Below, piece after piece: positions 12,706 through 40,200 of a DNA stretch of 64,000 bases. The notes below the pieces were generated by a model. That model was not told the DNA's origin. It saw only the letters and a program-made list of their open reading frames with translations, and ran no database searches. Source of the DNA: Tubulanus polymorphus. Lineage: Eukaryota > Animalia > Nemertea. Both the position numbers and the translations under genes were made by a program. The stretch is from positions 16,128,655-16,192,654 of the forward strand of contig NC_134033.1 in NCBI RefSeq assembly GCF_964204645.1. The letters run 5' to 3'. Every line of letters begins with the position of its first letter. Positions within the stretch are counted from its first letter, which is position 1.

Positions 12706-12870
12706 CGAATACATATTTTCAGCCAAAAATTCACACGGACGCATGATACAAAATATCAATGAATTTCACCTACTTGATTTGTGTTCAACATTAATCAGCA
12801 ATCGATGATTAAACAGAACTGCTACATTTCGTATAACACGTCGTGATGATGTTTTCGATATTTAACTCAC

Positions 12871-14911: not shown

Positions 14912-14917
14912 TTTATT
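14912..14917 (-). promoter_or_regulatory. Polyadenylation signal (distal 3' end)
   Basis: AATAAA on the minus strand, about 160 nt after the stop codon at 15078. Confidence 0.6.
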
Positions 14918-15077: not shown

Positions 15078-15364
15078 TTACGCGTTTTTCTGTTGCGGTA
15101 CGAGTGCTCCGGCGCGGTTAGCTTCCTCCAGCGTCATCGGGGCGGTCGTGTTCTTACCGGCAGCCGGCGGCGCGGGCGGCGCTGCTCGTTTAGCGCCACC
15201 AACGGTTGGTGTTGGTACAGCAGCGCCACCACCGGTTGGTGTAGGTACAGCTGCACCCCTATCGGTTGGCGTTGGTACATCAGCGCCCTCACCGGTTGCT
15301 GCTGCTGGTACTGGAATAGTATCGGCTGGTTTAGGCTGCGGTTGTAGTGCCGGATTACCAATCC
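15078..15364 (-). CDS. Terminal exon of the Cys micro-exon array: Pro/Ala/Thr/Gly-rich tail
   Basis: Acceptor TTTCAG| at 15365, phase 1. Encodes GIGNPALQPQPKP...(GAAVPTPTGG)x3-like...PQQKNA*. Confidence 0.85.
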
Positions 15365-16012: not shown

Positions 16013-19000
16013 CGACACAGTTACCGTGGAAAACCTGTGAACCAGGAGGACAGTAGATTCCTGCGAACAAAAGCAAAATAAAATATCGATAAACGAAGAA
16101 ATACATGATTATGATTGATGGGATTTTTCTCCCGGGAATTTGTTGTCGAGTTTGCGGCCAAATCACCTTCAAACACGAGCTCAGAGTTATTAACTATCAT
16201 AAAAACAGCTGCCTTTTAAAACAAACACACACGCGACGGATTAATGACCAAATTACTAAACGCTGAACAGAAGAAAAAACGTTGAAATAACAAGTCGTTT
16301 TAGGGAACTAATCAGAAACAAAGCAGATACTGCGTACAAATTTACGAATTTTAACAGAAGTCAATGGCGTCGCAGGAGATCTTATAAGTGAAGACGCTCA
16401 ACGCGTGTTCAATGCAGTGTTCGGGCGCCACAATTGACCTTGAACTTGAATTACGGATGTGGATTCGTATCTACCGGAACTGAATTAAGTGTAGACGCTA
16501 CTCGAGTACGAAAAGTGGTTTTCGTCGAACCGGCCGCGTCCATCGACACACGGGTCTGACGAGCTCGTTTACACGTAGCTAATATAACGATTTCCGCAAT
16601 GCAGTGTTAGTCTTAATAAGCTCCTTCAAATATTCAGCGTAAACCGCGCAAAAAAAACGCTCAAGCGGAGTTGGGCGAGTTATAAATAAACGTACAAAGT
16701 AGTTATATTTTTAAGGAGGAACAGTCGTGACGCGTCGACAGTAGTTAGACTTATGAATAATTGAATAATTTAAGCGTTGGAACGAACGACCGACGCCATT
16801 AGAGATAAGTCTGAGAGAACTCTCCGTCAGAAATTGATCGCTCTGAGAATCTCCGCGCAGAGATCGGTTTAATTGCCTTATTATGTTTATAGCTGAATCG
16901 AAAAAAAGTCGAACGTAGATAAGATATAACGTCTGACGCGTTTCAGAACTCGACTGCCATGTATTGATAACAGATCTTAACGGCGAGATTGAGTATGACG
17001 GGTTGTTAAGATTTGATTCTCAGAGTTCTGATTGAAAATGATCTGATCTTGATAGTTGTCGACGAAAATCCCCTGGCTAAAAAAATCAAATGAAATTTAC
17101 CAACCAAATAAATAACAGGGACAATCCCTATTTTAAGATTAAAAAAACCCCATAGGTAAAAATCCCCAAATCTTCGAATTAGGTCTTAATCTGATGAATT
17201 TGAACTAGACTTACGAATGCATCTGCCGTGAGAAACGAAGAATCCGGTGGGACAGTGAGACACTGAAAATAAACAACCACATCGTATAGATCACACAATG
17301 AAATCTATAAGGACCGGGTAAATCGAACTCTATCGTACAGAAAGTAATTTGTAAGGTTTTACTGGCATGTAATACATTGACGTAGCTGTAGCAATCATAT
17401 AAGGTTGGAAACCCGTCAATAAAATATTTTTTCTTTTCTCTTCATAAACCCCAAAGGTTTGCAGATCAATGATACTGCTTGGCAGAAAACCCATTATCGC
17501 TGCTTTGCGGCTATATTCAGGTTTGCTAGGGTCTACGCAGGAGCTGTGGTTCTATTTACTATACTTACATTCACAACGTCCGTTTTCAAAAGAGTAGCCG
17601 ACCGGACAATGCATAACTGAAAATCGATTCAAGAAGAACATATCGTTAGGATAGGATACACCGAGCGGACATCTGCGATTATGATGAGAGGAAGTACGAC
17701 TTGAAACAAAACTTGTTTCCTTTAACAAAACGGACAAAATCTAGCGTGAATTCGTCAAAACATGTCGTGTACCCAGGAGTCGTTAACTTATCGCGTGCCC
17801 CGCGATTTTTACTTATAAAATCCGATTTTGGAAAAAGTGAAGGAAAAATCGTGGCAAACACAAGCTATTATCCGACTTTCGCCGATCCGACATACGCGAG
17901 ATTACTGTATCAACAAATATTTAAGGAAAATATGGCGGAATGTTATGATTCGATAAGGATTTATTTTCTTTTCGTAAATCAGATGGTTTAACGCTAACCT
18001 CCACACTTGTTGTCGACTCGCACGAACGTATCCGGACACGACTTCACTATTATTGAAAACAACACGCAAATAATCAAATTAGAAATTAGAATTTCAGAAT
18101 TTCTTCTAAACGGCGTTGGTTAGGCATACGTACGTTTACATTGGAAGCCGACACTGATATATCCGGGCGGACAATTCAATTCTGTAATATACGATATGAA
18201 TAATTTATGAAAAAAAGAATTTCCTCCAGGTGTCAGTTTCACAAAAACGATATCTCATAAATCGATTTAGATAAATTGAATTTATGAAAAAATTGAATCT
18301 ATAAATAGTTGAACCTTCTTATGAAACTAGAACCCGGTAGAAGTAGAATTTGCATATTAATGCATACATTTGCATACGATTAAAAGCTGAAAATGGTTGT
18401 TGTCATTTTCTCTAGATGCCAGATTGCATCGCGCGCCTAGATATCTATACTAATACTATTTTCTGATAAACTTACTGAAACATTTTCCGTTCCTGTTCTC
18501 CCAGCCTTTCGGGCAAGTTTTCGCTGCAAAAAAAAAACAACGATCGAAATTTACCGAATCACGAAACGTAGAAATAGGAAACTTATCGACGAATCGTCAT
18601 GGAATATTTCCTATATTATTCACATCTATTTATCATTACAAAAAGTGAAAATAGGAAACTTATTCAAATTTAAGTTTCCTATTTTCACTATGAAAACTTG
18701 TTTTGGAATATTTCTTTATAACATTTATATCTATATAGTTATAGATATAAATGTTATAAAGAAATATTCAAAAACAAGTTTTCATGAATAGATCTATTCG
18801 TTCTAGGCTCAGTATGGCTCGGTAGGCTCAATAACTTATCTCACAAATTAAGACTGTAGTCTCAGAGAGTTCGTGTTTTACACCTTAACTTAACGTACCC
18901 TTGCAATGCCCGTCTTGATGAATGTAGCCGACCGGGCAGTGAACCCCTGTAATACAAAATACAGCAATTAATTAGGCTTTTCTTTTTCTAGCCCTGGTTT

Positions 19001-22000
19001 TCCCATTTATAGCTCTTGGGGAAATTTGCCTCGTCGATTGTACAACGAACAGCCGCATGTTTTCGCATAGATCAATCATTTACTTACTATAGCAGTTACC
19101 GTTTTCTAGTACAAAACCAGCGGGACATTGACGAACTGTAGAAATAGAAAATTACTCTTTTCGTACAAGAATCAAGTAGAAGGCATCAGATGTTTTATAG
19201 TCTAGAAACCTACTGTGGCAGTTGTGGGAGTGGGGGACGGGCGTGTGCCAATCTGAACACATTACATCTGCAAAACGAATGGATAAAGTTGAAAAAGTCG
19301 AACTAAACTTCGTTTTCGGTGAATTCAAGATCAGATAAATAACTTACGTAGGCATTTTCCATCGCTCTTCCAATACCCAGCAGGACAGTGAATCACTGTG
19401 AAAAAGAAATCCAATGTGAATTTACGTGAATTGAACTCTTACCATGGAAATTTCAGAATAAATGGAAATTATTTTTGGAACAAAGACACCTACGGACGCA
19501 ATGGGAGTCGACTGCTTTGTAACCAGGCGGACAGTATAACGCTAAAACCATCGAACGAAATAAAATCATTAAAACAAATTGAATAGAATTATTTCGTGGA
19601 CAATAAACAAACGCGTTTTGAATGCTTTAAATACCTTCGCAGTGTCCTAATTTCCTAACCTCACCGGCCGGACATGTTCCTGCGATAGACAGACATTTTC
19701 AAAGTATCACCAATATGTATTAAAAAGACCCAAAATATTGAATATAACGCTCAAGATTGGGTAGAATTTTTCGCATCTTCAGAGATCTATTTTAATAACA
19801 ATAAATCCCCGAAGATGTCCTGGGTAGATGCATTCCACCCGAAACATCAGGGGCCGGTTTTACTGACTGGTATTACCTTCAACCCGGAGGCTAACTCAAT
19901 TCATTATCAATTGAGTTAGCCCCGGGCTAAAAGGTAATACCAGTCTATAAAACCGGCCTCAGTACAACAGATTTTCGTCGTTAAATCTTTAATATTGTGG
20001 GTGCTTTGAATAGACTACACAGATTGCGACTTTGTTAAGTGATTTTGGCATCAAAATATCATCAAACATTCTCAAGAAAATTCATTCATGAAATGAAGTT
20101 CTAAATATCGCGGGTCGAACTCACTGCTGCATTGTTGGCCGATCTTCTCATAACCGGGCGGACATTTCTGAACTGTAAATTGAGAGAACATATTTTTCTA
20201 TCACGTATTTCAAGCTGTATTTTCAAAAAAGAAACCTTTCATATACTAACTCTTGTTTTTCTGGTCATTCCACCTGATGATGGCTGTTAGTCAACAGCCG
20301 AAACGTTGTGGTTTCGTAATAATAAATTTGATAGTATAATTTCAAATTCGAAGTGTGGGATTTCTTCATTTATCTCATTGTCATGTTGTATACTTACGTT
20401 CACAGTTTTGGTTGACAATGACGTAACCCCACGGGCAGTTCAAACCTTAAACATATGAAGCAAACATAGAAGAGAAAACATAGTCTGAGAAATAACACAT
20501 CTACAGGTCTAGTTAACATTATCTCAGTGACCTGTTACTCAAAAGTTGAATATATGGAAGAAGGTTGGTACCAGGGAGGTCTCTGGGGCCGGTTGCATAG
20601 TCATGGCTTAGACTTAAGACCAGTCTAAGACCAACTTACTTCCATAGCAAATCTAACAACTTCAGACCAGTCTTACGATTTAAGACCATTTTTGGTGCAA
20701 CTGGCACCAGGAGTTTACCAATGGATATTTGGCATTTTAGTGGAAATCCTTTTGAGCAACCTGGCCTAGAGTTCGAAATATGTAATTCAAGCAATTTTCT
20801 CCACAGGAAAAACTTACGGACGCATCGATTTCCATCTTTCGTGAAACCGCGAGGACAACTTTCCACTGGATGAGAAAGTAGAAAGAATTCATTGGGATTC
20901 GAACCCAATTGAAATATTTCACAAAAAAATCCGCTATCGAAAATAGAAAACATTCTATTATTACTTACATTCACAGGTTTTATTGTGAGGGTCGGGTATG
21001 TATCTATGGGGACATTCCAAAACTGAAAATAAAAAAGAAAAGTCGAGGTCTTCAAAACCATCATCTGTGATTCTTATTGCTAATCTCGCTTTCTCGTCTG
21101 GATGGTAACGTAGCAACTGTTTCGGTGATCAGCGCCTAGCAACGCCGAACTCAGAACTACCGAAAATGAAAGGCGCAGCAAAATGACTGGGAAATCCAGA
21201 CCGATTCGAATCCAGAGAAAACAACTCTCAGATACAGCCCTGTTAGTTCCCAGAAAACGAAAAACATGCGATGAGTCTATGGACGAGATTTGTATCGGGA
21301 CGAAACGGCACCGACAAGACGAGACGGTGAAAGATATCCACATTTACCCGAATCCGGACCGCACAATCTGTTCGCTTTATGACCAGTGGAACGTGCCATG
21401 CGCTAGGCGGTCGCCTCTGAGAGGTACACAGTGCACATCTATAGCTGTAAGTATGTCATATAGAGGTCACGTGACGTCATATTTTGTTTTCCGGTCGGTT
21501 CAATTCAATTTATCTTCAAACAAAGCATGATACAAGATTTGTCAACCAGTGCTGGAGTCTTTCCGCCATACAAAGTAACAAAAGATATTCTGTGGATTTT
21601 CAAACTTCGTGGTCTGTCATGTCAGACTCTCGTAGTTTGTACTCTCCCAGTTCCACAGTTGTGAGTTAGAGTTAACTCTTGAGTTAAAATCAATTCATTT
21701 TCAATCTCTGAGTCAAATTCAACTCACAACCTGTGGAAGTGCTGGATCCCGATCAATTTTTGCAAGAGGCGCAGTGGCCGAGTGGGTTAAGCCGCCGGTC
21801 ACTGGTCTCGTCAATCCAGGGTTTATGGGTTCAAACCCTGGTGGCGACAGAGTTTCTCGGTCGAAGGTTCTTCTCTGGTCTCTCCCCCATTGGGAAAAAG
21901 AAACGTCGAACCGCTCGTCATGCCCTACGTGGCGCTTAGCGGGTTGAGGGTGTTAAAAAAAAAATCATTTATTGCTGTTATGTACGGCAAGTTTTTAGCA

Positions 22001-25000
22001 CTGGTTAGCAAATAAACTACTATGACGTCACGTGTCAGACCACACTATACATAAAGGATATTAGGAAAACAGAGCCATTTGTAATTTGTATTTTCAATCA
22101 TCGGATATATTCACATTTCAAAATCTCTTCTCGAATATTCTGTCGTCGCAGGTACAGGCGGTTATAGCTTCGATTTTTAAACCGGTAAACCGTTGGAACA
22201 GCGACGATTTGGATCTAATTCTCTGCGACGGACACAAACTACACGTATCGGCGATCAGACAACTGAACGACCGATGTATCTATCCGCAGGGGAACTTCTT
22301 AATGCCCAGCGATATACCGACTGAGTTGATCACAACGGGCGTACCCCCGGGAAAAAAGGTTTTGATAAGCGTCGTTCATTAAGTGCTGATGCCAGTTTTA
22401 TACAGTTCGAGTTGGATAATGTAGCCTAACCTACACATTGGTCGACAAAAACTATAAAACTGGGTTCAGCGGTAAATTACAGAAAACATAACAAATGAGT
22501 CTTTTTCAAGCCAATTTCGAATGAGTTTCGCAGTTGTGTTAAATTTGAACTCAGGATCGAGTTTCCCACTGTTGTGAGTTAGAGTAAACTCATAACTCTG
22601 GATCCAGTCCCACAGTTGGATCCACTGTTAAAGCTAGCTCTGAGACGAGCGAAGTCCGCTGAACTCACAACTGTGTACTAGGCCTGGGCAGAATTGTCTA
22701 ATTCCATAAATAAAATCTAGGTGGTATTTGGCGAAGGTTTGGTCGGAATGATTTCATTAGAGGAGGTCGCTGAAGAGATCGCCGATTTCGTGGACACATT
22801 CCCGTGCGCTTTCCGGAAGGCGATGGCTCCTAAATACATAGGTATTTCATCCGTTGATGCGTTCTTCAGAATTTCGAATCTTTGATTGATTGGAACAAGC
22901 TCTAACTGGTTCTCCTCTCTAGGTGCCATTTTGACGGCGAATGACGAATCGGTGGCCATATTGAAATCACGTGATCGACGCTATCCGTATATGGTGTTAG
23001 ACTCGCACAGACGAGATCGTCACGGATTGTGTAGACCGACCGGTCACGCGGTGTTACTCGCGTTCGAATCGACCGATCATCTTATCAGGTAATCAGACAT
23101 TCGATTTAAGATTTAAGATAATTCAAGGCTGCAGACTGGATACCTATGGTGTTGTGCTACGAACGTGTCACTGAAGCCGGGATCACACGGGCATTTTTGG
23201 CCCGGGCCAAATTTTAGCACGGTTCAAATTATTGCGTGTGAAATGCAACTGGTTCCGCGTTTTCTGCGTGGTTTGCGTGTGTCTGTGAACGCGTTCTCTA
23301 AATAAGCGCGAGCCAAATTTGACTCGGGCCCGATCCGTGCAAGTTTGGCTCATGCCAAATCGTCTCCGTGTGATCGCGGCTTCGTCGAATATATCTGATT
23401 CGGTTTGTATCTGCCAGCCATTTTGTTTCAGATATTACCGGGAACTGGACGAAGAAAACCGACGGCAATTTCAACTGACCCCCGTCTTGATAGCAGACGA
23501 TTTCGACGAGAATGAGTGAAAAAATAGAGAAAAAATCAAAAACATGTTTCGTTTTCAAATAATTCGAGGAGCCTGGTATAAAATCGACAAACGTGAGAAC
23601 GGGTAGTTCTGTGTAGGTTTTAACTGATTCTGTTTGAAATTACGAGCTTTCGCTACTACTGCATAGTAGCTTTATTGACCTAAATCTACTAGTTTATTAC
23701 ACAGTTATATCTGTCTTTATGTGTATCGATTTCAAATGATTCACTGAACTCACCGACACAGTCGTTTCCTTTCATTTCAAATCCAACTGGACATTGCACT
23801 CCTGAAATTAAAAAAAAAAAATGTTTATAGTATTAAGGCATCGTATTTCGAAGAATTCATTCTCATTACTTTCAAGCCTAACCCGTTCCCTTTCAAGCCT
23901 AACCCGTTCCCTATAGCACCCCTCTACTTACTGTGACATCTCATGCCGACCAAATGGTACCCAGGAGGACACATAATCTCTGAAAATGGTTCACGATGGT
24001 TTTGTAAATGAAAAAAACGTAGGATTTGATATCGATGATTTACTACTAACAGTGACACAACTTACTCAAACAGCGGTTCTTGTGAAGTTTATATCCTTGC
24101 GGGCACCGGATTCCTGATTAGAAAACAAAGAACATTAATATCTCAGAAATGATTTCTAATATCGTTCAAAACTCAACGCAATTTCTCCGATTCAGCTGAA
24201 ATACTCACGGATACACTTGTTGCCTTTGATCAATTTGAAATCTTTCGGGCAAATTATTTCTAGAAAGAATAGTACGTGATGAAACGTTACATTCAGTCTC
24301 ATTTCATTGTCTATAACAAATCCTTTCCGAAAAGACGGAGACATCATAAAAATTTTATTTTATTTTCCGACTGATTTGAAATTAGTTTTTACGATTTCAC
24401 TTACTGTAACATTTATCGTTGAGTTTTGTATATTCCTTTGGACAATGGTCAACTGAAATCAAATATATAAATCAATCTTGAATTACGACCAAGCGATGAT
24501 CCTAAGGATTGAACAATACACAAATATTACATTCTGTTTCTAGAAAAAGATAAAAGGAATTCGTGTGAAAACTTACGAACGCATCTGTCATCTTTAAGTA
24601 CGTAATATTTCGGACAAGTTATTTCTGAAAAAAAAATGAAACAATATTCAGTGATTTATGTGTTCATAACGATACAACAGCGCACAGTTGGGTCCCGCAA
24701 TAAAATAATCACTCAGGAACGCTTGAAGAAAAACGCTTAGTTGGAGGGGAAAAGCTAAGACAGCATTGATGTTCCGAAAGTCTTTGAAAATGTTTGAAAA
24801 TGGCTCATAATACTTGAGTGGAAACGTCTGTAGTTTTTTGTTTTTCTATTTCATCGTGGGTTTTCCATCAAATAAGAATATAGACACTTACGTATGCATC
24901 TGTGACCAATTTTCTTGTAACCTTTCGGGCAATCCTTCACTGAAAATGACGATGATTATACCGAAATAAGTGAGAAGGAAATGAATTCTAGATAACTCAG

Positions 25001-28000
25001 AATCGTGAAACTGGGTCTTGGCGGAAGGAATTAATGATCAGATACTCACGGATACATTCCCCGTTGACCAGTTGTGATCCAGGCGGACATTCGGTCCTGA
25101 TACAAGTTTCGTTCACTTTCTTGTAGCCAGTTGGGCAGTGTATAACTACAATACAAACAATATACACGAACGATATTACTTTCATTATAAATTCCTGAGT
25201 TGCTCAACTCTACAGGAAACTCTTACTGTGACAAATTTCAATATCTACATAATATAATTCACATGGGTTTCACGGCATTTGTAATATTTCACCAATTTTT
25301 AAATTCTGAACTGTAGATGTTACTGAGACAATTAATGATCTTCAACGTTTTTCTAAATTTTGTTTTCAAGAAGATGAGTCTACACAAGCTACCGTGTGTC
25401 TACTTACGTATACAGATTTTCCCATCTTTGCTCAGCATGTGACTCGGCGGACAGACATAACCTTAAAAGTAAATGAAAATAACGGGGAATGTTTTTTACC
25501 TCAGTAAATCTGTTGACCGTACTTTTAAAAATCATGATCAGGCTAACCACAACAGACCTAGGATATCAACTGATTACAAATTTCATTGCTGTTTACAAAA
25601 TGACCCGGGAGATTAGGAGAAACAACCTTTCAATTTTTTCTAGCCTTATTATAATATTTTCTAAGAAGTGATCAGGGTTGTTCTATATCTGATACTCACG
25701 TGTACATTTACCGTGTTCCATTACATACGACTCGGGACAAATCGCTGAAAAATGCGCATAGAATATTCATACGTTATGAAATGAACAATGTTTCATGTGA
25801 ACAGAATTTCAGAATGATATAATATACACTTACGCGCGCATTTGGCACCCTTGATTGCGTAACCGACAGGACATTTTATGCCTAGAATCAGAATCAGGTG
25901 ATATTAGAAATAAACTATTTTCTATTTATGTCGAGGTTATTGAGTGATCGGTGAAAACCAGGAACCAGTTTCAGCAGTTCTTGGTTAGAATTTGACCCGC
26001 GCGTTGAGATATTATTGGAATAAACGAATTTTAACACCAAAAAAGTCAAAAAGTGGTCGTAAATCTTATCTGAAGATTGATCTTATGTCATTAGATTGGC
26101 TATAAAACTAAAATGAGCTCAGACTGGTCACAAGTTGTTAGATTAGCTATAGGGTCTTAGACCGGCCTTTAGTAGTTAGTTTGGTTATAGAACTAAAATG
26201 AGTTTGTAAAATGGAGTTGTTAGATTGGTTGTAGAACCATTATGAGCTTAGACCGGTCTTAAGTTGTTAGATTGGTTGTTGAACCATTATGAGCTTAGAC
26301 TGGTCTTAAGTTGTTAGATTGGTTGTTGAACCATTATGAGCTTAGACTGGTCTTAAGTTGTTAGATTAGTTGTTGAACCATTATGAGCTTAGACTGGTCT
26401 TAAGTTGTTAGATTAGTTGTTGAACCATTATGAGCTTAGACTGGTCTTAAGTTGTTAGATTAGTTGTTGAACCATTATGAGCTTAGACTGGTCTTAAGTT
26501 GTTAGATTAGTTGTTGAACCATTATGAGCTTAGACTGGTCTTAAGTTGTTAGATTAGTTGTTGAACCATTATGAGCTTAGACTGGTCTTAAGTTGTTAGA
26601 TTAGTTGTTGAACCATTATGAGCTTAGACTGGTCTTAAGTTGTTAGATTAGTTGTTGAACCATTATGAGCTTAGAGACTGGTCTTAAGTTGTTAGATTAG
26701 TTGTTGAACCATTATGAGCTTAGACTGGTCTTAAGTTGTTAGATTGGTTGTTGAACCATTATGAGCTTAGACTGGTCTTAAGTTGTTAGATTAGTTGTTG
26801 AACCATTATGAGCTTAGACTGGTCTTAAGTTGTTAGATTAGTTGTTGAACCATTATGAGCTTAGACTGGTCTTAAGTTGCTAGATTAGTTGTTGAACCAT
26901 TATGAGCTTAGACTGGTCTTAAGTTGTTAGATTAGTTGTTGAACCATTATGAGCTTAGACTGGTCTTAAGTTGTTAGATTGGTTGTTGAACCATTATGAG
27001 CTTAGACTGGTCTTAAGTTGTTAGATTAGTTGTTGAACCATTATGAGCTTAGACTGGTCTTAAGTTGTTAGATTAGTTGTTGAACCATTATGAGCTTAGA
27101 CTGGCTCTAAATTGTTATATCGACTATAGAACTAATATGCCCTAAACTGATCTTGAATCTAAGCCATGAATGTACAACTGGCACTCCTCGTTTTTGAAAC
27201 TTACGGACACATTTTCCCATAACGCTTTGGAATCCTTCCGGACAAATTCCTGCAATCAAAAATTACAATCAACATCTGTTAATCGATGTTAATTAATGTT
27301 AATAAATTCGTAAATGTAGTTCAACTGAGATATAAATGGATGAATGAATGAATGAATGAATGAATGAGTTGATATTGTGAAGAAAATCTTCCCCGAGATT
27401 TCTTACGTACGTGTACATCTTCCTGTAGAGTTCAACTTCTGTCCTTTCGGGCAAGAGATACCTACAAATAGAACGCCAGTAAATAATAGCAATTCCGTTG
27501 TTGGTCAATTTCGATAGATATTGTTCAGATGATTTCTCTTAGTACGTACGGACGCAAGTTTGACCATTTTTCGTGTAACCAGGTGGACAGAAAACAACTG
27601 TGGAGAAACGATGAAAAAAACATAATAATACCCAGCCAGACTTTTTTATCAGTCAATAGTACAAAAATACCACTCAGGGGTCAGTTACTCAAAATTTGGT
27701 TATAGTTAACCAGCGGACAGTTGACTTAGTCACAATTTAAAGTTCATTGTTACTATGGTATTTATCCGCCGGTTTCCTTTAACTAACTTTCGAGCAACTG
27801 ACACCGGAATTGTTTCATGAACTAAATTCATGAGCTACGTTTGAGGATTTAAACATATGTTCTACCATTTTCAAAGCTACATTAGGATTAGATGATAGTA
27901 TCTTAAGTTGTTCATGAGTCAGGTTTGTTTGGAATACACACATTATGCACATCCATTAAAAAAGATGATGTTCTACTCACGTGTGCAGTTGCCCTGTTCG

Positions 28001-31000
28001 TTTAACTTGTAGCCTTTTCGACAAATATATCCTTGATTTAGAAATAGAGAAAAACATAAAATATGATTATCACATATATCTATTTATCATATCGTCACAC
28101 CTTATTACATTGATCTCATGATCATGTTGAACTTACGGATACATTTGCCGTCTTTTTGATGATACATTTTCGGACAGCGAACTGCAATGGAATGGATATG
28201 ATCGGATTATTACGCATAGACGCAAACCGAGTCCTTCCTTATCAAGGAAGGCAAGTAAGTGAAGCATTACAGGAGATGACTATTAAGATTACGTCGAAAG
28301 ATAGATATTACCTCAAGGAAATTTTCGGACCCTTTTTATTCTTAGGTGTAGGATTTTATAAAACCCTACCAACCCATAGTCCAATCCCTCGTTACCAAGA
28401 TATTTCAGAAACTATGGTAATCGTAAACTATCAAAACTATCTCGGACATGCTCTTACTTACCCACACAACTCTGTCCCATTAGGAAATATCCCTTGGGGC
28501 ATTTTGTAACTGAAAAAGAACAGAAATAAATTCGAATCTGAAATTGTAAAGGGTCTTAAGTTTCAGTGGTCAGAGGTTATTTAGGATATACTAACGGATG
28601 CATTTTTTGCCGATTTTCTTGTAGCCTTCCGGACAAACGACTAAAACATACGACAAAAATCAACCATTTATCATAATTATTTCAATCTAATCAGAATTCA
28701 TTTCTATGCATTGATTTTCAACCTAACGCGCTAACCTGTACATTTTCCTTTGATAAGAACCATTCCCTTCTTGCACGAGTATCCTAGGAAATAGATAATA
28801 GAAATATTCTAGTACATTGTACAAGCAACAAAAAAGGACTTTTAACCCTATCCAGCTAAAATAGGAGTCCTTTATGATCGAGGAGCTCTGGTCTGACATT
28901 TCCCGAGCCGATTGGGGTAAAAGATCTGTGGCTACTTACGCACGCATTTGTTATCGGAAATCCTATATCCCTTCGGACACGAGTGAACTGGATAATTAAA
29001 AGATAACAAAATCATTAATTTGATTTTGACATCGAAAAAAACTACATAGATAAAGTTAGTAGAGTTTGTTTAAAAACTTACGAACACATCTGTAATCTTT
29101 GGTTAGGATGTAGCCTTGTGGACAAGTGTAGTCTACAAAATAATTTCGTTAGATTTTGTTTATAAAGGAGAAGTGATGGAGGAACCGTGTTAACCTGGTG
29201 TCGAATCGGTAAAACGTAAAGACAGGATTGGTTATTTAGTTTGATTTAAGATACGAGCTTTTAGCTACTAATATAGCTTCATCAGGCAAATGAGCTATTG
29301 AGCTTCTAAAATACAAATTAATACCGAAGATTCTATCTTAGATTTTATAAAACGAATTGATTCTATTTTTTCAAAGTTGATGTTAGAACCTGAAAGTTAA
29401 CTTACGAACACAGAACGCGTTCTTCGGCATGTAACCTACGGGGCATTTGGCTGAAAAATTCAAATCATATGCGCATAGATTATGTAGATACGCATATCGT
29501 CAAGAACAAGTGATAACTGTATAAGTGAAAGGTTTAAGTTTAATATGTCGAATGTGAACAATACTGTGACGTCATTTGCCGAGTCTCGGAATGTTTCGTC
29601 TCTGAAGTTTTATTTTTTCAATCTAATGAGATCAGATGAATACTTTGTGATAGTTTCGACTCACCGACGCATTTGGTTCCCATTAAATGATGACCTTTAG
29701 CGCAGATGACTCTGATGCACTGTTTACCGAACTGTTTGAACCCAACCGGACATTGAGTAACTAGAAAAACAAAAATATGTATCACGACAATATGTTATGT
29801 TATGAATTTTATCGCATTAAATTAGAGATTAATTGTAAGTAATCTAATGCAGACACATTTTAAAGTGTCCTATTCAGTGCCAGTCATTGCTTTAAGGCAC
29901 TTGCAACATTTAGAAGTATATTTACAGCCAAACCCGCTTAATCCGGATCGGCTTAATCAGATTTTAGTTCATTCTGGACATTTATTTGCGGTCCGTTTGT
30001 TCATTAAAATACGAGAAAATGACTTTCTATCCGGATTTTCCGTAAACCGGACGAATTTCGTTCGTCCCAAACGATCCGAATTAAGCGGATTCTACTGTTT
30101 TCAAAAATCCTATATTTGTTAGAAACAGTACCGGTATAAAACATAACTAAATAAGCCATTATGCCTGGCTAAAATCATAAGTCTTGAACAATTAAAAATG
30201 TGTATCATTTCTAAATCATTTTAAAGTTTATAGGACCACATTCTCCCCCTCACTTACTGATACATTTTCCTTCTTTCGTCATTCCTTGAGGACAGTGATA
30301 ATCTGAAAATTTAGAAATATATCTTTCACCTCTTTTGTTCCGCTTTCAAACACGTGGCACGCAAAATATTTGGGATAAGATATCGATACTTACGGATACA
30401 TTTTCCGGCCAGAAGTTGGAATTTTTCCGGGCAGGCAACGACTGAAAAGTGCATGAAATATTTCATCAGCAGAAAGAATTGAAATGAGATTATTTTATGG
30501 GAATATAAGTGTAGCTCTTGATACTTACGGGTACATTTTCCAGTTGAATCTAATTTGTATCCGGGATGGCAGGTGTATCTGATACAGATACCGTCGCTGA
30601 TTCTGTATCCGGGCGGACAGGTCACTGTGTAATAATAAAACCATCGAACATTTATGAATTCATACTCAGTGAAATATACAGGGTTGAATGAGACTGAATC
30701 GAGTACAACTTCCTTGTGGGGGATTTACTTTAATATGTTTCCACAGTATATCAGAAAAGAAAGATCCTCCCTGTTGACTTTGAACAGTAAACCTTGCATA
30801 AGTCGGATCGGCGAAAGTCGGATTAATCGTTTGTATCGGATGAATATTGATTTTCCCCATTTTCCCGTCTATTTTTCAATTCATAATCCAAAGTCGAGTA
30901 CTTTTATTGGCCACAAAATAAAAAACTATAAAAACCGAAATTTTGAGTGATATATTCTTCCCATTGCAGTTTGATTCCTCTTCCAGGCCTGTCCCGGGTT

Positions 31001-34000
31001 TGAAATCGACGATACCTATCAGCGGTCGTTATTTCAGTTGTGGTTATTGTATTAGAATAAGAAATGAACCCAAAATATTTCAGCGTTTTTGAATCATTTC
31101 TTGTTCCGACGTTACGCAACGTTTAAATGTGCTACAATTTTCGATACTTACTGACACATTTCTCGTTCAGCACAACGTAACCTTTCGGACATTTTACACC
31201 TAAAAAACAGATATAATCCATTAATTCAATGGGTAAAGCGATAAATGTTGAAAACGTCGCTAGATTTTTTAAAAGCTTTCGAAATCTTTGAGACACGATT
31301 GCTGTGACTGTTTCGGGCAAACTTTCACTTACGCACGCATCTTCCAGCACGTTTTGTGTAACCTTTCGGGCAGACAGCTGAAAATGGAACAAATTTTCCG
31401 ATGAGTCTGATAACATCCAATGTCTATTTCAAGTAAAGCGAGACGGATAGTACTTTAACAAAATTCTCTATTTGAAGTACAAGCTTTAGCCTCATCGGGT
31501 AATTAATGAGGTGAATTATTTCAACCCTATTTGTATGTCGGGTGCCATCGTCAATTTTGCGGAACCTTCGAAACGATATAAAATCTTTTAGAAATGGAAT
31601 GCTTTAGTCCAGCTTCCAATCAGCGCTGGTAAAATTGTAAGACCTATATACGGATATGTACTACTGATATTCACTGAGTTATGGCACCTAACACTCGTTC
31701 AAACAAGTTGAAATAGTTCATGGACACGAATCCAATTTCAAATCGATAATCGATCACTTACAAACACATTTTCCATCTTTCGTTACAACTTCTCCTTTCG
31801 AACAGCTATGCACTGCAAATTAAATAACAAATAGTTTGAAATAGATTTGTTTCTCGTTACAAACAATCAGCTCGAAACCGAAGAAAAACTTGTTCAACTC
31901 ACGGACGCATTTGTCTCCAACTTTGATGTAACCACGCGGGCAGTCGACCACTAGAAATGATATCATAAATTTGCATAAATTGTTGCGTAAAATAATAAAT
32001 TATCATAAATTGTTACTTAATAGGGGACTCTATACATGATGAGGGGAGAGGAGTTGTGTTAATCTGTTAATTAACCATCAAAGTAATATCTTTCTTTTAT
32101 GTTTACTGTTGTGTCATGTAAAAGTTCAAATGAATTACGCCATATTTTGAAATAGAACTTACGAATGCACTTTTTGCCTTCTAGTTTATAGTTGTGCGGA
32201 CACAGCATTTCTGTAAATACGTACGTGAAAAATAGAACATTGTCATAACATTGAGGATTCTGGATTATAATCATAATTCGTAGTTCATGAAATACGCCAC
32301 GTCAAGCCAAGTTTTACAAAAAAAGGTTAAAATCATAAATCTATGCGGGGTGAACTGAATTGATAATGAAATAAAAGTTGATTGATCGTGTTGAAATTTT
32401 CTTAACACTAGGACCATGTTTAAAGCTGTTTCTAATTTTCTTTTTTAAATCTTCATGAAAAATAAATTAAAGATATAAATCACTCACTGATACAATTCTG
32501 TGCGAATTTCACGTAGCCTTTTGGACAAATAACTGTAAAAATACAAAAATGGCGTAAAAATCAGAAAAAATCATCGATCGCGACATCTATCGTTCATCGA
32601 ACGCAATTTACTAACCGATACAGTGCCCGTCAGCAGCCATTCTAAAACCTTTCGGACACGAGTAACCTAGCGATAGAAATTCAGAAATCATCACTGAATT
32701 ATATACCGAGGTATTCTTATTTTCGAAGTATAGACACCGGTAGAGCTGGAATACTCACGAATACATTTGTTGTCTTTTTTCATATAACCCTCCGGGCAGG
32801 AACAAACTATCGATTGAGATAAGACATCAAAAAATGAAAATAGAATAATGCACCGATGAAAATAGAATATAGTTAATCACTGTAAAATATTTCTTTCAAA
32901 TTTATGTTGGTTCGCTAGATATTCATCATATGTTATAATATTTTGTCTGCAATCTTGCTGGTTTTCTACTTCTTAATTGCAAATAAACTATTATTATTAT
33001 GTATTTTACTTACGGACGCATTTGTTGCCGACCAATTTGTAATGCTCAGGACAAACCATTTCTATTTACATAAAAGTAGAAACGCATTTCAAAGATTCTT
33101 CGTTGATTTCTGAATTTTCGAAAGTTCAGTTTTCGAGTTGTACATGGATTTTGCTTTTGAGTAAATTGGATTTTTATCGGCTGAACTTACGTAAACAGGT
33201 GTTCCCACGTTTGATAAAACCGGGTGGACATTTTACGGCTAAAAACAAAACAAGAATTAAATTATCGAATTAAAAGACACAACATTTCTACAGAGACCAT
33301 TGTCAGGTGTAAAATATATTCAAAGACTCTCTCAAACTCTGTTGGTCGTCTCCAGAGAGAGTCCAAAACTTTAGGAGTTCGTCTTTTGATTTCTTATTTC
33401 AATTCTTGATAAAATATATATCGTTCTTAATCGTTTGAATTTGGTTTTAATGGGTTTTAATCTTAACTCATGAAATTAATATCAGTAATTTTTTCATAGA
33501 TCTTACCTAGACAGGCAGTGATTTTATCCAGCGGGCACTTATCACCTAAAGACAAATATATTACGTTTACATATACTACAGGAAGATTATATAAAATCCC
33601 ACACTAAGAATAAATAAGGAGTCAGAATTCTTCCTTGAATAGCCATATTCAAGAAAAGGATAAAAAAAATCCAAAATAATTCCTTGAGCTTGTATCTATT
33701 CAACGTTTCGACTATATCCTAAAAGTCATCTTAAAGAACCGATAAGGAAAACAAAAATTCCTAAATGTTTCCTTGAGCTTTGAGTTTATTCAGTGTTTCG
33801 ATAACATCCTAATTAATCATCGTTAGGAGAATGGCTCTTTTAGTCTAAGTGAGGAATTCCGGGATTCTATCATTCATCGTTTCATCGATTAGTGTTTCGT
33901 CGATAGCTATAACTGTAAGGTTTATTGATTACCCTTTGCTTTAAAACTAAGACTAAAACACGGTCCCGGTTACTTACGATGACAGCGAGTTTTTATCTGT

Positions 34001-34235
34001 ACAAACCCGGTCGTACAATGCACTTCTGTAAACAGGAAAATGAAACGAGGAAATCACCGTAAATTCGCAAGATTCGAACGATATTATTAAGATAATATGT
34101 ATAAAGATATGATCATTAAGATAACATTTCATTGTTTGTTCGACTTTTTGAATTTTTGAAAATTGTTTGATTACTTACTCATGCATTTTGCTCCTACTCT
34201 GTGAGTTTTATGCGGGCAATGCCAGTTTTGAGTCG
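16013..34235 (-). CDS. Array of 56 phase-1/phase-1 micro-exons encoding 58 CPxG(Y/F)xxxx(x)xxC two-cysteine modules (2811 nt, 937 codons)
   Basis: Exons, each with AG/GT ends and a length that is a multiple of 3: 34179-34235, 33978-34025, 33507-33545, 33191-33238, 33014-33061, 32759-32806, 32616-32666, 32488-32532, 32163-32210, 31903-31950, 31762-31812, 31333-31377, 31152-31199, 30529-30624, 30394-30441, 30258-30302, 29665-29760, 29406-29450, 29082-29132, 28940-28987, 28736-28783, 28596-28640, 28462-28509, 28137-28181, 27981-28031, 27550-27597, 27411-27461, 27205-27249, 25834-25881, 25700-25744, 25408-25461, 25227-25244, 25050-25145, 24892-24939, 24577-24624, 24405-24452, 24209-24259, 24066-24113, 23932-23979, 23754-23801, 20969-21022, 20818-20865, 20398-20445, 20125-20172, 19635-19679, 19494-19541, 19348-19395, 19214-19267, 19088-19135, 18899-18946, 18476-18523, 18134-18181, 17999-18046, 17569-17616, 17215-17262, 16013-16060. 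Examples: VKCPPGFIKRGNTCL, VCPEGYKKIGKKCI, IYCPPGSQVFHGNCV. Confidence 0.9.
18644..18785. repeat. Two abutting AT-rich palindromes
   Basis: 18644-18689 has perfect 19-bp arms and an 8-nt loop. 18690-18785 has 46-bp arms with one mismatch and a 4-nt loop. Confidence 0.9.
19850..19960. mobile_element. Fully palindromic ~110-bp MITE (Tourist/PIF-like termini)
   Basis: GGGGCCGGTTTTA-GACTGGTATTACCTT...GGCTAACTCAATT / AATTGAGTTAGCC...AAGGTAATACCAGTC-TAAAACCGGCC, with TCA on both flanks. Confidence 0.75.
20270..20311 (+). ncRNA. Minimal type I hammerhead ribozyme (Penelope/retrozyme type)
   Basis: CCAC-CUGAUGA-U-GGCUGUU(AGUC)AACAGCC-GAAA-CG-UU|GUGG: intact core, 7-bp stem II, 4-bp stem I, vestigial palindromic stem III, and AATAAA just downstream. 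Confidence 0.8.
20585..20708. mobile_element. MITE family B (CTTAGACTGGTCTTAAG core)
   Basis: TIRs GGGGCCGGTTGCA / TGCAACTGGCACC; homologous to 43155-43294, 57206-57345 and 25961-27184. Confidence 0.75.
21183..23519 (+). CDS. Nested antisense gene: herpesvirus-tegument-like (peptidase C76/VTD-type) deubiquitinase, 281 aa, 5 exons
   Basis: Exons 21183-21446, 22152-22358, 22721-22841, 22923-23088 and 23432-23519 are all GT-AG (phases 0,0,1,2) and give 846 nt of open frame. Motifs: SLYDQ..RGTQC84TSIAVQAVI..WNSDDLDLILCDGHKLH..GAILT..SVAI..YMVLD224SH226RRDRHG..GHAVLLAFESTDHLIRY..QFQLTPV. Confidence 0.82.
21766..21964 (+). mobile_element. tRNA-derived SINE in intron 1 of the nested gene
   Basis: A box TGGCCGAGTGG, B box GGTTCAAACCC, a non-tRNA body and an A10 tail. 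Confidence 0.75.
23174..23382. mobile_element. MITE family A copy in intron 4 of the nested gene
   Basis: TIRs AAGCCGGGATCACACGG / CCGTGTGATCGCGGCTT; homologous to 726-999. Confidence 0.75.
25961..27184. mobile_element. MITE family B copy expanded by an internal satellite
   Basis: GGAACCAGTT left end, AAAAGTGGTCGTAAATCTTA and TCTAAGCCATGA...CAACTGGCAC right end match family B and enclose the 47-bp array. Confidence 0.65.
26234..27116. repeat. 47-bp tandem repeat, ~18.5 near-identical copies
   Basis: Unit GAACCATTATGAGCTTAGACTGGTCTTAAGTTGTTAGATT(A/G)GTTGTT; starts at 26234, 26281, 26328 ... 27082, with one 2-bp insertion near 26673. Confidence 0.97.
29925..30097. mobile_element. Tc1/pogo-type MITE
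   Basis: TA|CAGCCAAACCCGCTTAATCCGGATC...GATCCGAATTAAGCGGATTCTACTG imperfect TIRs. Other elements with similar termini lie near 17870-17909 and 30785-30840. Confidence 0.6.
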
Positions 34236-34849
34236 CTGAAAATATATGTAAACTTGCTTACTTCATTCTCTCGAGCAGCATCCCGTCACGCTCGTTGGTC
34301 ATGAGGGCTCTGCCGCTACACAGCTTGCATCGTCCTCACATTAACATTTCATAGGGTCCCCTTTTACTTCCCCGGACCAACCCCACCACTACAAAAATCC
34401 TAAATCTGTAAGTTTGATAGTACGCGTGAATAAACATCATGAAGATCTACGTAAATAGGTCTCTGTTAACAAATCTGTTTTATGATGGAAGCTATTTTTT
34501 AGTACCATTTTGTACACAAGGCAAGGGCTCGTAGTATCAGAGTGTTGTAGGTAGTGTAAAAACGGAAATATGTTAATCCAGTGTCTACAATTTACCCTTG
34601 TGATTTTGTATGTAGTTTCCCTACGACGTCATGCATTCAGCGATGTAATTGAAATACCGATGTGTTTTTTTAAACAATGAAAGCTATAGCGTGTGTGACA
34701 TCTGCTGTCGTATGAAGCACATAATCAGCGTCACATTAAATACAACTAATATCCCACAGCATGTGTCCAGATAAAAGATCATTAATCGATTCGACGAATG
34801 TGATATTTGCGCGAGTGAAATTTTCCAGCATATGACACTTATACATCGT

Positions 34850-34921
34850 GGGGGTATAGCTCAGCGGTAGAGCATTCGACTGCAGATCGAGAGGTCCCTG
34901 GTTCAAGTCCGGGTGCCCCCT
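34850..34921 (+). tRNA. trnC-GCA: tRNA-Cys(GCA)
   Basis: GGGGGTATAGCTCAGCGGTAGAGCATTCGACTGCAGATCGAGAGGTCCCTGGTTCAAGTCCGGGTGCCCCCT: canonical cloverleaf, GCA anticodon, T5 Pol III terminator downstream. Confidence 0.97.
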
Positions 34922-35523
34922 CAATTCTTTTAATTAGCTTTTTATCCAGTTACTTGTTTCTATCGAAACATACTTCCTGTTTTTTTTCTTGTTTCTTGAC
35001 GTGCTTTTATCATAACGTTGGTATGTGCAACGAGGGTTGGGGGTATAAATAGGGGGTTTCTTACTGGTGGTTAAGGATGGGAGGTGAATGCAAGAGTGAC
35101 GTGTTGTATAAGTATATATATATATATCACGCAGTAGTGAAATAAAGTTAGTTGAGTATATAGAGAAAAATCGTTATACGTTGAATCGATTGAGTGGTCC
35201 AAGAAGCCCGGTAATATTTTCGTGTTAAAATTACAGTATTTTGTATAGATGTATGCTTTGTCATAAAGGATATACAGAAAGATAGTTTGCTTTCCAAATT
35301 TTCAAGTTAGCATACATTTGCATTTATTGAGCACTCGTTAGAGATTATGATATGCAAATTTATGCGTGACGTTTATTCGAAATATTATTGTTTCTACGGC
35401 TCCGATTGTTAATGATATTCATGCAATTTACAACCGATGTCGTAAAAAGATCAATAATACATCGATAAAACGAATGGAAATTTTCATTTTAAAATTTTCA
35501 AACATCTGGCACGGTTTATAGAA

Positions 35524-35595
35524 GGGGGTATAGCTCAGCGGTAGAGCATTCGACTGCAGATCGAGAGGTCCCTGGTTCAAGTCCGGGTGCCCCCT
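35524..35595 (+). tRNA. trnC-GCA: tRNA-Cys(GCA), identical second copy
   Basis: 72 nt identical to 34850-34921, with T-tracts downstream. Confidence 0.97.
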
Positions 35596-36081
35596 TCCGA
35601 AACTTTTCATTTTTTCCCCAGTTTTTGTTTGTTTTAGTTTTTAATGAATTTCGGTTGTTACAGGGTTCAGGGCTCAGTGAGTAAGGTAGAGTTAAAAGTG
35701 GCAGCAGAAATCCGATGCTACTCAACCTTCAGAAAACCAGGGCTCACGTCCTTAAGAGAATGATCTTCAATCATCAGACCGGATTTAGAGTTTTAGGTCT
35801 CAAATTGTAACGGTTTGACTATTGATGTCCTAAATCATACGACTTGTCTAAAGTTGTTTGACTAAGGGACTTATCGAATGGTCAAGAGATGACGTTAAGT
35901 TATCCAAGACCGGTCTGAAATCTAAGCCTTGAATGCAACTAGCACCAGAAGTCGCGTGTTCCCAAAAAAGCAAAATGAAATAAACATAAAACGAAAGGAC
36001 GGATATCGTTTACAAAATTTCTTCTTATATTTTGTAACATCAGACAATTTTTTTTCACTCGATTCAAAAAAAGAAATAAAC

Positions 36082-36087
36082 TTTATT
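36082..36087 (-). promoter_or_regulatory. Polyadenylation signal (proximal 3' end)
   Basis: AATAAA on the minus strand 105 nt after the stop at 36192, followed by a U-rich tract. Confidence 0.65.
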
Positions 36088-36191: not shown

Positions 36192-37288
36192 CTATGGTCC
36201 GAAGAAAGGAAGCTGATCCGGCCTACGGATCGGCCTGGCGAAGGCGCGGGCTCGTTGGCGGTATCTGCTACGTTTAGCCGCTTCACTTTGTAGAAATCTG
36301 TGCCACAGCGACAACCTGTTAAACTGTCGTCCGGCGGCGAAAGCGGAATTTCGTGGCCGTTGGATAGCGCGAGGATTAGCTGCACGTCCCCCTAACGATC
36401 CACCAGCAGCCTGGTTAGCTGGTATGTGAGGAGGCGGTTGCGGCTTGACGGGTGGTTCTGCTCCGGCCTGTGAAGTAGCTCCATGAGCTGCAGGTTCACT
36501 AGGCACCTGGGGTTTCATTCCTCCTGGACTTCCAGGAGCCTGCTGAGCATCAGGTTCACTAGGCACCTGGGGTTTCATTCCTCCTGGACTTCCAGGAGCC
36601 TGCTGAGCAGCAGATTCACTAGGCACCTGGGGTTTCATTCCTCCTGGACTTCCAGGAGTCTGCTGAGCAGCAGATTCACTAGAGGGCTGGGGTTCCATTG
36701 CTCCTGAACTGCCGGGGACCGGCTGGCCAGCTTGTTTACTAGGCGCTTGGGGTTTCATTTCACCTGCACCTCCAGGAGCCTGCTGTTGGCCAACTGGTTT
36801 CCCAACTCCAGCACCTCCTCGCATCAATGCGCTCCTCAGACGATAAGCCGCCATGACTGGTGACTCTTGTTTACGTTCCCAGCCACCGGGTGGCATTATC
36901 GGGTGTTCGGTGACCTTTTTTTCCGGATGTAACCACGGTTGCGGCTCGTGCCCGTGACGCATGCGCCATCTCATTCCACCGGGGAACTCCTGCGGTTTAG
37001 GAACCGGAGCGTGTAATCCGACATTCTGGGCGAAGTGTGGAATACCAGAATGGGCTCCTAGGATTTTACCTGGTTTCTTAGGTGGTGGTGGAGGTGGTGG
37101 GGCAGTAACTGGCAGGTGGGTGGTTGTAATTTCTGGTGGATGTGTGGCGGGTGGGCGTGTGAAGAGTGGTTCTGGGGCGGGTGCTGTAGTCGGTGGTTTA
37201 GTCGGCGGTTCTGTTGGTTTCTCCGTAGTGACTTCTGGTTCCTTGTGACAGTTGACTTTTGCTTTACCACACTCGGAGAAAGCCCCGA
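36192..37288 (-). CDS. Proximal terminal exon: PT-rich stalk, 20-aa GSPGGMKPQVPSESAAQQAP repeats, Arg-rich C-terminus
   Basis: ORF 36192-37301 with an acceptor at 37289 and a 60-bp tandem repeat at about 36490-36790. Confidence 0.85.
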
Positions 37289-40200
37289 CTGAAACGACCA
37301 ATTTTAAATCCGATATTTAGCATCAATAAAGTTTATCTTTAATCAACAATTGACGGTTCCACATTCCTTAGTTAGAGTTTATATTAGGAAACAAAGACCA
37401 GAACGACGCAAATCATGACGATATTGAACAATAAACCAATAAACAATTTCATCTTTGGGTTCAGTTTCACGAGAAAAATTGACTTCTAAATCGATCCAGG
37501 ATAAACCGAATCAATGAAGAATTTAAATCGATCTAAAGGTTAAAACTTTTTGTGAGGACTTTTTCTGGGTTTTAATTGACAGTCAATTCTAACCCGGAAC
37601 AGCGGAACCTGGTAAGGTCTATTTTTAGTTTACCTGTATTCAGTAGTATTGACAACCATTTCGCAAATCGGAACAGCCTCAAATTCGGAGCCAGAACAGC
37701 GTGTCTGTTCTTATTCTTCTGATCGAAAATATCTTGACGCGTAGAAGACGACGAGCCGACCGCGAAATAGATGACTCTCAGACCCTCGCGTAGCGCCACC
37801 TCAGCCTGGCGGACGGTGGCCGCTGTCTCTTTATGTTGACCAGCGCCGATGATGACCAGCAGTTTCTTGCAGCTGATGCGACCTCCCGAACGCGTCGCGA
37901 ACGAGTATTTCCTAGCTACGTAGATCCCCTGAGCCGCGTTGGCGAAGCCGCCGCGATACTGTACTCGTTCTATGGCCGACATCACTTTCATTTTACTGCT
38001 CGAATCTTTCAGCCACATGTAAGTGGTGACGCCTTGGTGATAGGTGACTAAACCGACTCGAATTAACGACATTCCGACGTTGATTTGACTGACGACTTTT
38101 TGCACGAACGTCTTCACGATTTCGAGCCTCATGCGACCCATATAACGCGACGTGTCGATCAGAAATACGACGTCTAATTTGACTTTGTTTGCTATAAAAA
38201 AGGAGATAGAAATATCAAATAATCTGTACAATGTAATATAATATTTTCTCAATTCAAAATTCTAATCTTTGCTATTCTAAATGTATAACGACATTATTAC
38301 ATAAGGGCATTATGACTATAGCAATGTTGACTGCGTCCATGTCCTCGGATTGTATGAAAATGCATGTTAATGTTTTCAGCCCAGTACCCCTCAACGCTTA
38401 GTTGTGTGCTCTTCGGAAAGTTGCCCTTCTCATTCATAGTAAACCTTATACCCCCTCATAGAACTCTAGATCTGCCCAAAACTTACGTGGATTGTAGAGT
38501 TTGAAACATTTCTCGCCTATCTTTGTTTCGCTTGGTTTGCAACGTGGCCCTGTAAATATAAAAAAAAACAATATGTATATGTTAACACGTTTGTACGAAT
38601 TTAATGCTGTAAATTTATCATTATTTCAGGACTTGACCATCTGGTACTATTCGGTTACAAACTGAGGAAGCATCAAAACATTTGGGGCGTTATATATTAC
38701 ATTAAATGTTGCCTTATTTCAAAAATAAAATTTATCGAACAGTTTTTTTTTAGATTGTCGTAAGATTATTACCTGTAGGTTTTATGTGCGGTCCATTTCC
38801 CCATGAACACTCGAACGTAGCTGGAAAATCGAAAAATAAAACATGAAGACATTCTATAGACATCCTACATAAACTTCTCGGTAAGGATTGAGATATTTTC
38901 AGGGACAGGGGTCAGGGGTAGTTGTTGCTAATTCTTAAAATCTTTAGGTGTTATACGTGTTTGTGACACTCAGTGAAAAAGAAATTGATTTTATAACGTA
39001 TTCGCAAATGGCTCCATTGTAGTCTGTGAAAAATCCCTCTAAATTCCCGCGTATCACCAAAAGATTTCGCAATGCGCATACAACTACACCACGCACCCCT
39101 TTCGTCGGCCTTGGCCTTTATAAAAACAAGTGACTGATGAATACCGGTAATACTCACCCCGCATAAAACTTAAAATGTTCCGAATTAGCAAAATCCACGA
39201 GAAAAAAGCGTCGCGTTGTATGGGCATTTTATAGTGTCAACATTTGCTATAAATCGTTTAATGTATAAGACTACAATGGAGCTAGCGAACACAAAATATT
39301 GCCACAAAGACTGGTCCCGGGACTAGAGGGGATTGATGACCCAATCAACGAAGGAGACTGGTGCCCGACCCACTGGCGATACCGGTACCTATTTACCGAG
39401 ATTTTCGCGACGATTTTAATTGAATATAGTCATACACAGTTAGAGTTAAGATTATTTCGTTTCATCGAGTTTACTCTGAATCTAATCTAAATTTAGATCT
39501 GTGGAACCGGGTCCAGTTGATTACAACATTTTTCCCATTCCAGATATCCACACATAAAATGCAATTCCTATAATTCAACGTGATCACATAATTTCGCTCA
39601 CCTCGTATAATAGCCGTCTTCAATTTAGGCACGGCGCTTCGGAACTGCATGAAACTGTTCAAGAACGCCACCTGGTGACCGATGCCCCACAACTCCTTGC
39701 GGTTGATATTCTGCCCGATGCCGATGACGAACAACCCGATGCGCAAAGATCTGGCCATGTAAGCCTGATGGATGGCCTCCTCGTTGTTGATCGATTTTCC
39801 GTTCGTGATCATGATGGCGAGTTTCGGGACTCCGGGTCGAGCGCCATTTTTCGGCGAGTAACAATCGACCCTCATTACACGTAGCGCCTTGGCCATGTTT
39901 GTGCTGCCACGTTGGTATTTCAGGTTCCTGGGAAAATGTGGAAATTCGTATGAAGTTTATTAGAGCGTTTGGTTGTGTAAATTTTTATAATAATGTGATT
40001 TATATAGCGCTAAAAATTTTGGAAATGACGAACATAGCTTTTTTAAGTTCGACTGATTTCAGAGTTAGATTAAATCCACGCAACTGTGGAACTTGGTCCA
40101 TATTCAAATTAGATCCACACAACTGTGGAATTGGGTCCAGAGGTAAATTAAAAGTTGAATTAAATGCACACACAATGTGGAATCTGATTCACAGTCAAAT

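Follow-up and report, generated by a model that had tools for sequence, protein, structure and literature searches.

Adjacent tRNA genes of one isotype that lie less than 1,000 nt apart are defined as a homogeneous tDNA cluster, and the available part of PMC2888827 describes tDNA clusters as mostly small, close same-isotype pairs as common, tRNA synteny as poor and the loci as turning over fast. In Arabidopsis, a tRNA-Cys-GCA mini-cluster consists of four genes in 0.4-kb units (PMC10701932, available text); the same text gives no match on adjacency, demand or cysteine-rich genes. Tissue-specialised systems are represented by the silk-gland tRNA-Ala isodecoder of Bombyx (PMC10470029) and by the Arabidopsis Ser/Tyr or SYY cluster of root caps, whose deletion impairs an extensin reporter (PMC12308677). 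As far as the accessible parts of both papers go, these systems rest on measured tissue-specific expression and involve a distinct isodecoder or a tandem expansion. In animals, whose genomes average 201–1,539 tRNA genes by clade, tRNA supply follows demand mainly via copy number, according to the part of bioRxiv 10.1101/2024.07.22.604600 that was available, and animal tRNA genes of the same anticodon are described as having upstream motifs in common (PMC3082873, in part).

The window analysed here, which is the whole 64,000-nt stretch of DNA from Tubulanus polymorphus (Palaeonemertea by taxonomy), contains a tRNA pair of the homogeneous type. ARAGORN calls two tRNA genes over the 64,000 nt, both tRNA-Cys(GCA) on the + strand, and Rfam agrees, both copies matching the full model with 66.3 bits against a cut-off of 29. 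Copy 1 is intronless and occupies positions 34850..34921 (+), while copy 2 occupies 35524..35595 (+). Their 72-nt bodies are identical, their starts are 674 nt apart and 602 nt lie between them. The earlier note had taken two identical tRNA-Cys(GCA) copies, spaced by 674 bp, to be the sole tRNA genes in the 64 kb, and both programs bear this out. A permissive Rfam search of the whole window (E ≤ 1) returned three matches and no third tRNA, the remaining match being a weak one to a miRNA family, far below the cut-off of that family. With a gap of 602 nt, the pair falls within the cluster definition given in the available part of PMC2888827, and it resembles the small clusters described there and the Arabidopsis mini-cluster (PMC10701932, available text) in being of one isotype, parallel, less than 1,000 nt apart and flanked by sequence held in common. 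Unlike those clusters, the pair here abuts a gene with 12.6% Cys.

Both genes look functional, because each has the A and B boxes and is followed within 20 nt by T runs, and we infer that they are transcribed by Pol III. Specifically, the two internal boxes, A and B, start at 34857 and 34900 in copy 1 and at 35531 and 35574 in copy 2, and T runs of at least four, of the Pol III terminator type, follow both copies, at 34928..34943 on the + strand (T4 at +7, T5 at +18) and at 35604..35615 on the + strand (T4 at +9, T6 at +15). The Rfam alignments place a U in the last model position, the discriminator, of both copies; a discriminator U is an identity element of tRNA-Cys. Elsewhere in the window, tRNA-like heads with B boxes are seen at 21767–21845 (+), ~58440–58525 (+) and ~58230–58320 (−), the first also with an A box. 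These heads lie in introns of both neighbouring genes, are called by neither ARAGORN nor Rfam, look unlike tRNA-Cys by eye and are likely SINEs.

The flanks of the two genes point to a likely origin of the pair. The upstream flanks, at 34735..34843 (+) for copy 1 and 35412..35520 (+) for copy 2, are homologous and align over ~110 nt, with 74 of 116 columns identical (64%, counted on the printed alignment). With 150-nt flanks, none of 1000 shuffles and none of 1000 control stretches taken from the window reached the score of this alignment; with 600-nt flanks, 1 of 1000 shuffles did. The downstream flanks are at best marginal, their score being reached by 46/1000 shuffles and 24/1000 control stretches with 150 nt, and by 138/1000 and 119/1000 with 300 nt. 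Within the upstream flanks, the motif AAATTTTC-A-CAT starts at 34818 and 35492, 32 nt before each gene and with the same spacing in both copies, and it occurs at these two positions only when both strands of the window are scanned. The flanks had been described as diverged except for a shared motif about 30 nt upstream; the motif is indeed there, but the resemblance extends over the ~110 nt of upstream flank that align. Since these flanks align, the pair likely arose by an old local tandem duplication of gene and flank, with the shared motif belonging to the duplicated unit. In this duplication, the tRNA-Cys gene together with 110 nt or more of its flank would have been copied 674 nt away, whereupon the flanks may have drifted to ~64% identity while selection or gene conversion held the tRNA bodies identical. 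The motif probably sits in the zone where TFIIIB would bind. Additionally, an AATTTT run stands at −31 to −26 of both genes, which we take to resemble the upstream box of silkworm tRNA-Ala.

The neighbour on one side of the pair is an array of 55 phase-1 microexons of 39–96 nt (16013..34235, −), each encoding one or two C-P-x-G-(x7-9)-C units. Its 930 codons are open without a stop and contain 12.6% Cys, 11.4% Lys and 9.2% Gly, in agreement with the 12–13% Cys given in the earlier note. A predicted Pro/Ala/Thr-rich terminal exon of 94 codons (15078..15364, −) lacks Cys, is followed by AATAAA at 14917 and lowers the Cys content of the array to 11.4% when included. The microexons are symmetric and mostly 45–51 nt long, each a divergent C-P-x-G...C unit, as in an exon-duplication array, and could allow combinatorial skipping. 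Assembled contigs from four sequencing runs of one study, none of which is recorded as RNA, were compared over 28001–34800, and contig depth was not taken as expression level. In run X4, a contig of 261 nt connects exons 31950–31903 and 31812–31762 exactly at the predicted borders; six consecutive array exons sum to 261 nt and closely reproduce five depth bins of this contig. The array is real, and the contig is spliced and RNA-derived. Over the first array exons, run X4 gives no cover, and in bin 34584–34800 it gives a small signal (1.66) that may stem from a repeat or from an upstream exon with its end at 34596; nothing is concluded from either. A separate feature of an array intron, at 33697–33732, is a very high-copy repeat, with a summed contig depth in run X1 of ~45,000 (bin 33676–33902) against ~37 for single-copy DNA.

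The array has a counterpart in the Cryptosporidium oocyst wall protein COWP1, a wall-forming protein that likewise contains tandem C-P-x-G...C units. A profile of 44 array exons matches COWP1 with E 2.6e-48 over 30 stretches, second among the 150 matches listed. The likeness may be convergent, because insect, bacterial and unnamed proteins also match among those listed, and short repeats converge easily. By analogy with COWP1, the profile suggests that the product may be a disulfide-linked structural protein. Among Pfam families none covers the array cleanly, one of three double exons passing as cEGF, and a comparison of the repeats with solved structures gave no match. Two further searches gave weak blanks: none of the 150 listed profile matches shares a 10-residue word with the minus-strand frames, and the array terminal exon was found in none of 1,512 annotated protein candidates of 166–2,000 aa.

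[quoted passage not shown] Its predicted terminal coding exon is Pro/Ala/Gly-rich (36192..37288, −), with a phase-1 acceptor and a stop at 36192–36194, and ~490 nt separate a predicted AATAAA poly(A) signal (36082..36087, −) from the 3' end of tRNA copy 2. Between this signal and copy 2, at 35827..35949, lie pieces of a dispersed repeat family that match 20582–20686, 57244–57278 and other stretches. The two biggest exons of the gene contain 3.6–3.8% Cys and 23–26% Lys; its very long Lys/Glu/Gly/Ser-rich repeat exons comprise ~1,430 and ~610 codons. This VWA/FN2 gene is a candidate for a tube or mucus matrix protein. Its repeats were found in none of 62 annotated protein candidates of 2,633–5,000 aa, a weak blank, and their best score in the ESM Atlas, 0.86, serves as a lead only. 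A metagenome search with the VWA exon gave two loci, at 34% over 45 residues and with no tRNA, which were rejected as orthologues.

A candidate first coding exon of the array (34368..34440, −) begins with an ATG at 34440, comprises 24 codons with a hydrophobic core and ends in V-R-G, of the V-x-G type, at a phase-1 donor that is weak; a 132-nt intron, of normal length for the array, would connect it to the first array exon. This predicted signal-peptide-like exon is placed head-to-head with tRNA copy 1 at a distance of 410 nt, which suggests that the array is a gene of its own. An exon of this kind arose in 9 of 1000 shuffles and not once in 55,301 nt of control sequence, with thresholds set post hoc, and looser thresholds give one per ~16 kb of control. 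The phase-1 donor at 37634 of the VWA exon could equally splice to the array acceptor at 34235, as the one-gene view would have it. On balance we modestly favour a separate array gene with its own candidate signal-peptide exon over one gene. With two genes, the tRNAs are intergenic, convergent with the end of the upstream gene and head-to-head with the array start, and the pair would occupy a 1.6-kb gap that separates the 3' end of the giant VWA/FN2 gene from the start of a secreted Cys-repeat gene. The tRNAs had been placed antisense between a proximal poly(A) site and the array; the position stands, whereas the word proximal presumes one gene with two ends. Between the tRNAs, at 35046–35130, we also note three features that may mark a non-coding first exon or be due to chance: a TATA-like word (+), a (TA)n run and, at 35065, a strong donor on the minus strand. 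As an exon marker, this donor was set aside, because no ATG frame lies behind it within 60 codons and because donor-like words are frequent in introns (26 GTAAR in 15,106 nt).

We consider it most probable (about 0.65) that the intact, identical tRNA-Cys pair, likely the product of a tandem duplication long ago and likely a supplier of the common pool, stands beside the Cys-rich array by coincidence. TFIIIC and TFIIIB would load on each gene, and the Pol III product would be exported and serve all mRNAs; any gain from nearby open chromatin would be a by-product. The expectation under chance was calculated from assumed inputs, namely 200–1,500 tRNA genes, a Cys share of 2–4%, 50–300 long genes with at least 10% Cys and a genome of 358 Mb, the Atlantic form of T. 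polymorphus having ~358 Mb by flow cytometry (PMC8468679, available part). The span of tRNA gene numbers follows bioRxiv 10.1101/2024.07.22.604600, the Cys shares and the counts of Cys-rich targets are our own assumptions, and the pair was counted as one event. On these assumed inputs, a genome has a chance of 0.001–0.073 of carrying one or more Cys loci no farther than 1.5 kb from the start of a Cys-rich gene; under a loose definition, which admits loci in a 20-kb gene or up to 2 kb away from it, the chance per genome is 0.007–0.45.

Adjacency is uncommon for an isotype chosen in advance in one genome, which counts for the coupling idea of the earlier note. Several isotypes would make a similar story, because the array contains almost as much Lys and Gly as Cys, and Lys makes up 23–26% of the big upstream exons against less than 4% for Cys. 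Coincidences of such size are also expected somewhere, since the match was picked post hoc, Lys or Gly would fit almost as well, other classes of residue-rich genes offer matches of this kind, and very many windows were scanned. Against coincidence, Cys is the residue of the array most enriched relative to usual proteomes, in which its frequency is ~2%, and both tRNA-Cys copies and the motif spacing have been kept through a long divergence of the flanks.

Of the alternatives to coincidence, coupled supply survives best, although we regard it as unlikely. It holds that the pair stays in place because it and the Cys-repeat gene have a head-to-head promoter region in common, and that opening of the locus in secretory cells raises tRNA-Cys for bulk synthesis of a protein with 12% Cys. 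Since mature tRNA enters a cell-wide pool and acts in trans, with no delivery in cis, such coupling is only possible through shared cell-type activation. The divergent candidate ATG 410 nt from tRNA 1 and the low chance of adjacency under the tight model (0.001–0.073) favour it, as does the AATTTT run, given its likeness to the silkworm box. In mammals, tRNA genes are more often active, or in active chromatin, when protein genes are nearby, as the available part of PMC6961574 reports. The silk-gland tRNA-Ala isodecoder (PMC10470029) and the Arabidopsis Ser/Tyr cluster (PMC12308677) serve as tissue-specialised precedents, and the likeness to them is that the isotype fits the residue that dominates a repetitive structural protein, probably a secreted one; the accessible parts of these papers concern tissue-specific expression, however, not linkage to a client gene. 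Moreover, the locus has two identical copies, and with two copies in 64 kb there is no large tandem expansion of the SYY type.

The window itself supplies further points against coupled supply. It has no Lys or Gly tRNA gene, though both residues are nearly as frequent in the array as Cys, and the match was selected post hoc out of a very large scan. The Cys codons of the array show no bias to TGC: 42 are TGC and 75 TGT, and the resulting 36% TGC is like the intron background of 37% (p = 0.85). By comparison, the Tyr, His, Asn, Asp and Phe duets of the array are together 65% C-ending (Fisher p < 0.0001 versus Cys). In animals under translational selection, the preferred codon is usually NNC. 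Tuning to the GCA anticodon is thus not apparent in the Cys codons, but surplus tRNA with relaxed selection, or a preference for TGT across the genome, would look alike. A literature search, outside which most subscription papers lay, turned up no tRNA-Cys gene described as linked to a client rich in Cys. A possible human case, a tRNA-Cys cluster close to genes for zinc-finger proteins and SCO-spondin, gained no support in a literature search and was dropped.

It is quite improbable that the pair acts as a boundary, in which occupied tRNA genes form a barrier to readthrough or chromatin spread from the upstream gene into the array promoter, the Cys identity being incidental. The position would suit this role, for the pair occupies the stretch 490–1,230 nt beyond the poly(A) signal of the upstream gene and closely precedes the candidate array start. 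Of 272 yeast tRNA genes, 132 act as roadblocks to Pol II, none with readthrough (PMC5052057, available part), and tRNA genes are cited as chromatin barriers in the accessible part of PMC2888827. The likeness to the yeast TFIIIB/tRNA-gene roadblock is that tRNA genes stand just past the predicted 3' end of a Pol II gene. The yeast evidence, as given in the available part of PMC5052057, concerns non-coding transcripts and collisions on the upstream TFIIIB side, with the Pol II peak at TFIIIB, 65 bp upstream of the tRNA, and with antisense-side peaks seen for DNA polymerase and not for Pol II. Here the geometry differs: the upstream gene is on the − strand and the tRNAs are on the + strand, so Pol II arrives head-on at the tRNA 3' ends and not at the TFIIIB side. 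In addition, this evidence comes from yeast, not from an animal.

The weakest explanation, a 3'-end switch, is very improbable. It takes one gene with two last exons, in which intronic Pol III complexes would hold Pol II back and promote use of the nearer poly(A) site, and release would let the VWA exon (donor 37634) splice to the array (acceptor 34235) in a transcript across the tRNAs. In its favour, the donor 37634 and the acceptors 37288 and 34235 are all of phase 1, and exons to either side of the tRNAs have one type of repeat in common; phase compatibility says little, however, because nearly every exon here is of phase 1. With contigs compared over 28001–34800, no transcript spanning the tRNAs was seen, and a signal-peptide-like exon lies one normal intron length before the array. 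Active tRNA genes would also shut off the long form in just those cells where Cys is needed, so that the switch works against the supply idea. The testable evidence leans against both the supply and the 3'-end mechanisms.

Further features were observed elsewhere in the window. An intronless adenosine-receptor-like GPCR at 1239–2381 (−) is 100% identical over 96% of its length to a T. polymorphus protein, the next match being Lineus longissimus at 60%. A 47-nt tandem repeat of 19 copies, 98% alike (26215–27117), is related to a dispersed repeat family present in both orientations, with relatives at 20583–20696, 35827–35949, 43184–43294, 54732–54819 and 57234–57347, which suggests a satellite born from a small mobile element. 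A dispersed 39-nt minisatellite family, also in both orientations, is found at 7317–7649, 12354–12710 and 40060–40290.

As it is most likely read, the locus contains a routine tRNA pair, which matters little. If the arrangement were conserved and co-regulated, it would be an animal tRNA gene physically linked to the protein gene that consumes its product, and such linkage is a candidate new element relative to the tissue-specialised tRNA systems. The ribbon worm would then have an operon-like tRNA–client module, for which we see only a small chance, in which opening of the locus in gland cells activates a secreted structural protein with 12% Cys, perhaps tube or mucus material, together with its limiting tRNA; if true, it would offer a single-locus test of whether tRNA supply meets demand by cell type. 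T. polymorphus builds a secreted tube, and the 55-microexon array and the giant VWA/FN2/Lys-rich gene may be more interesting than the tRNA pair, as candidate tube or mucus proteins.
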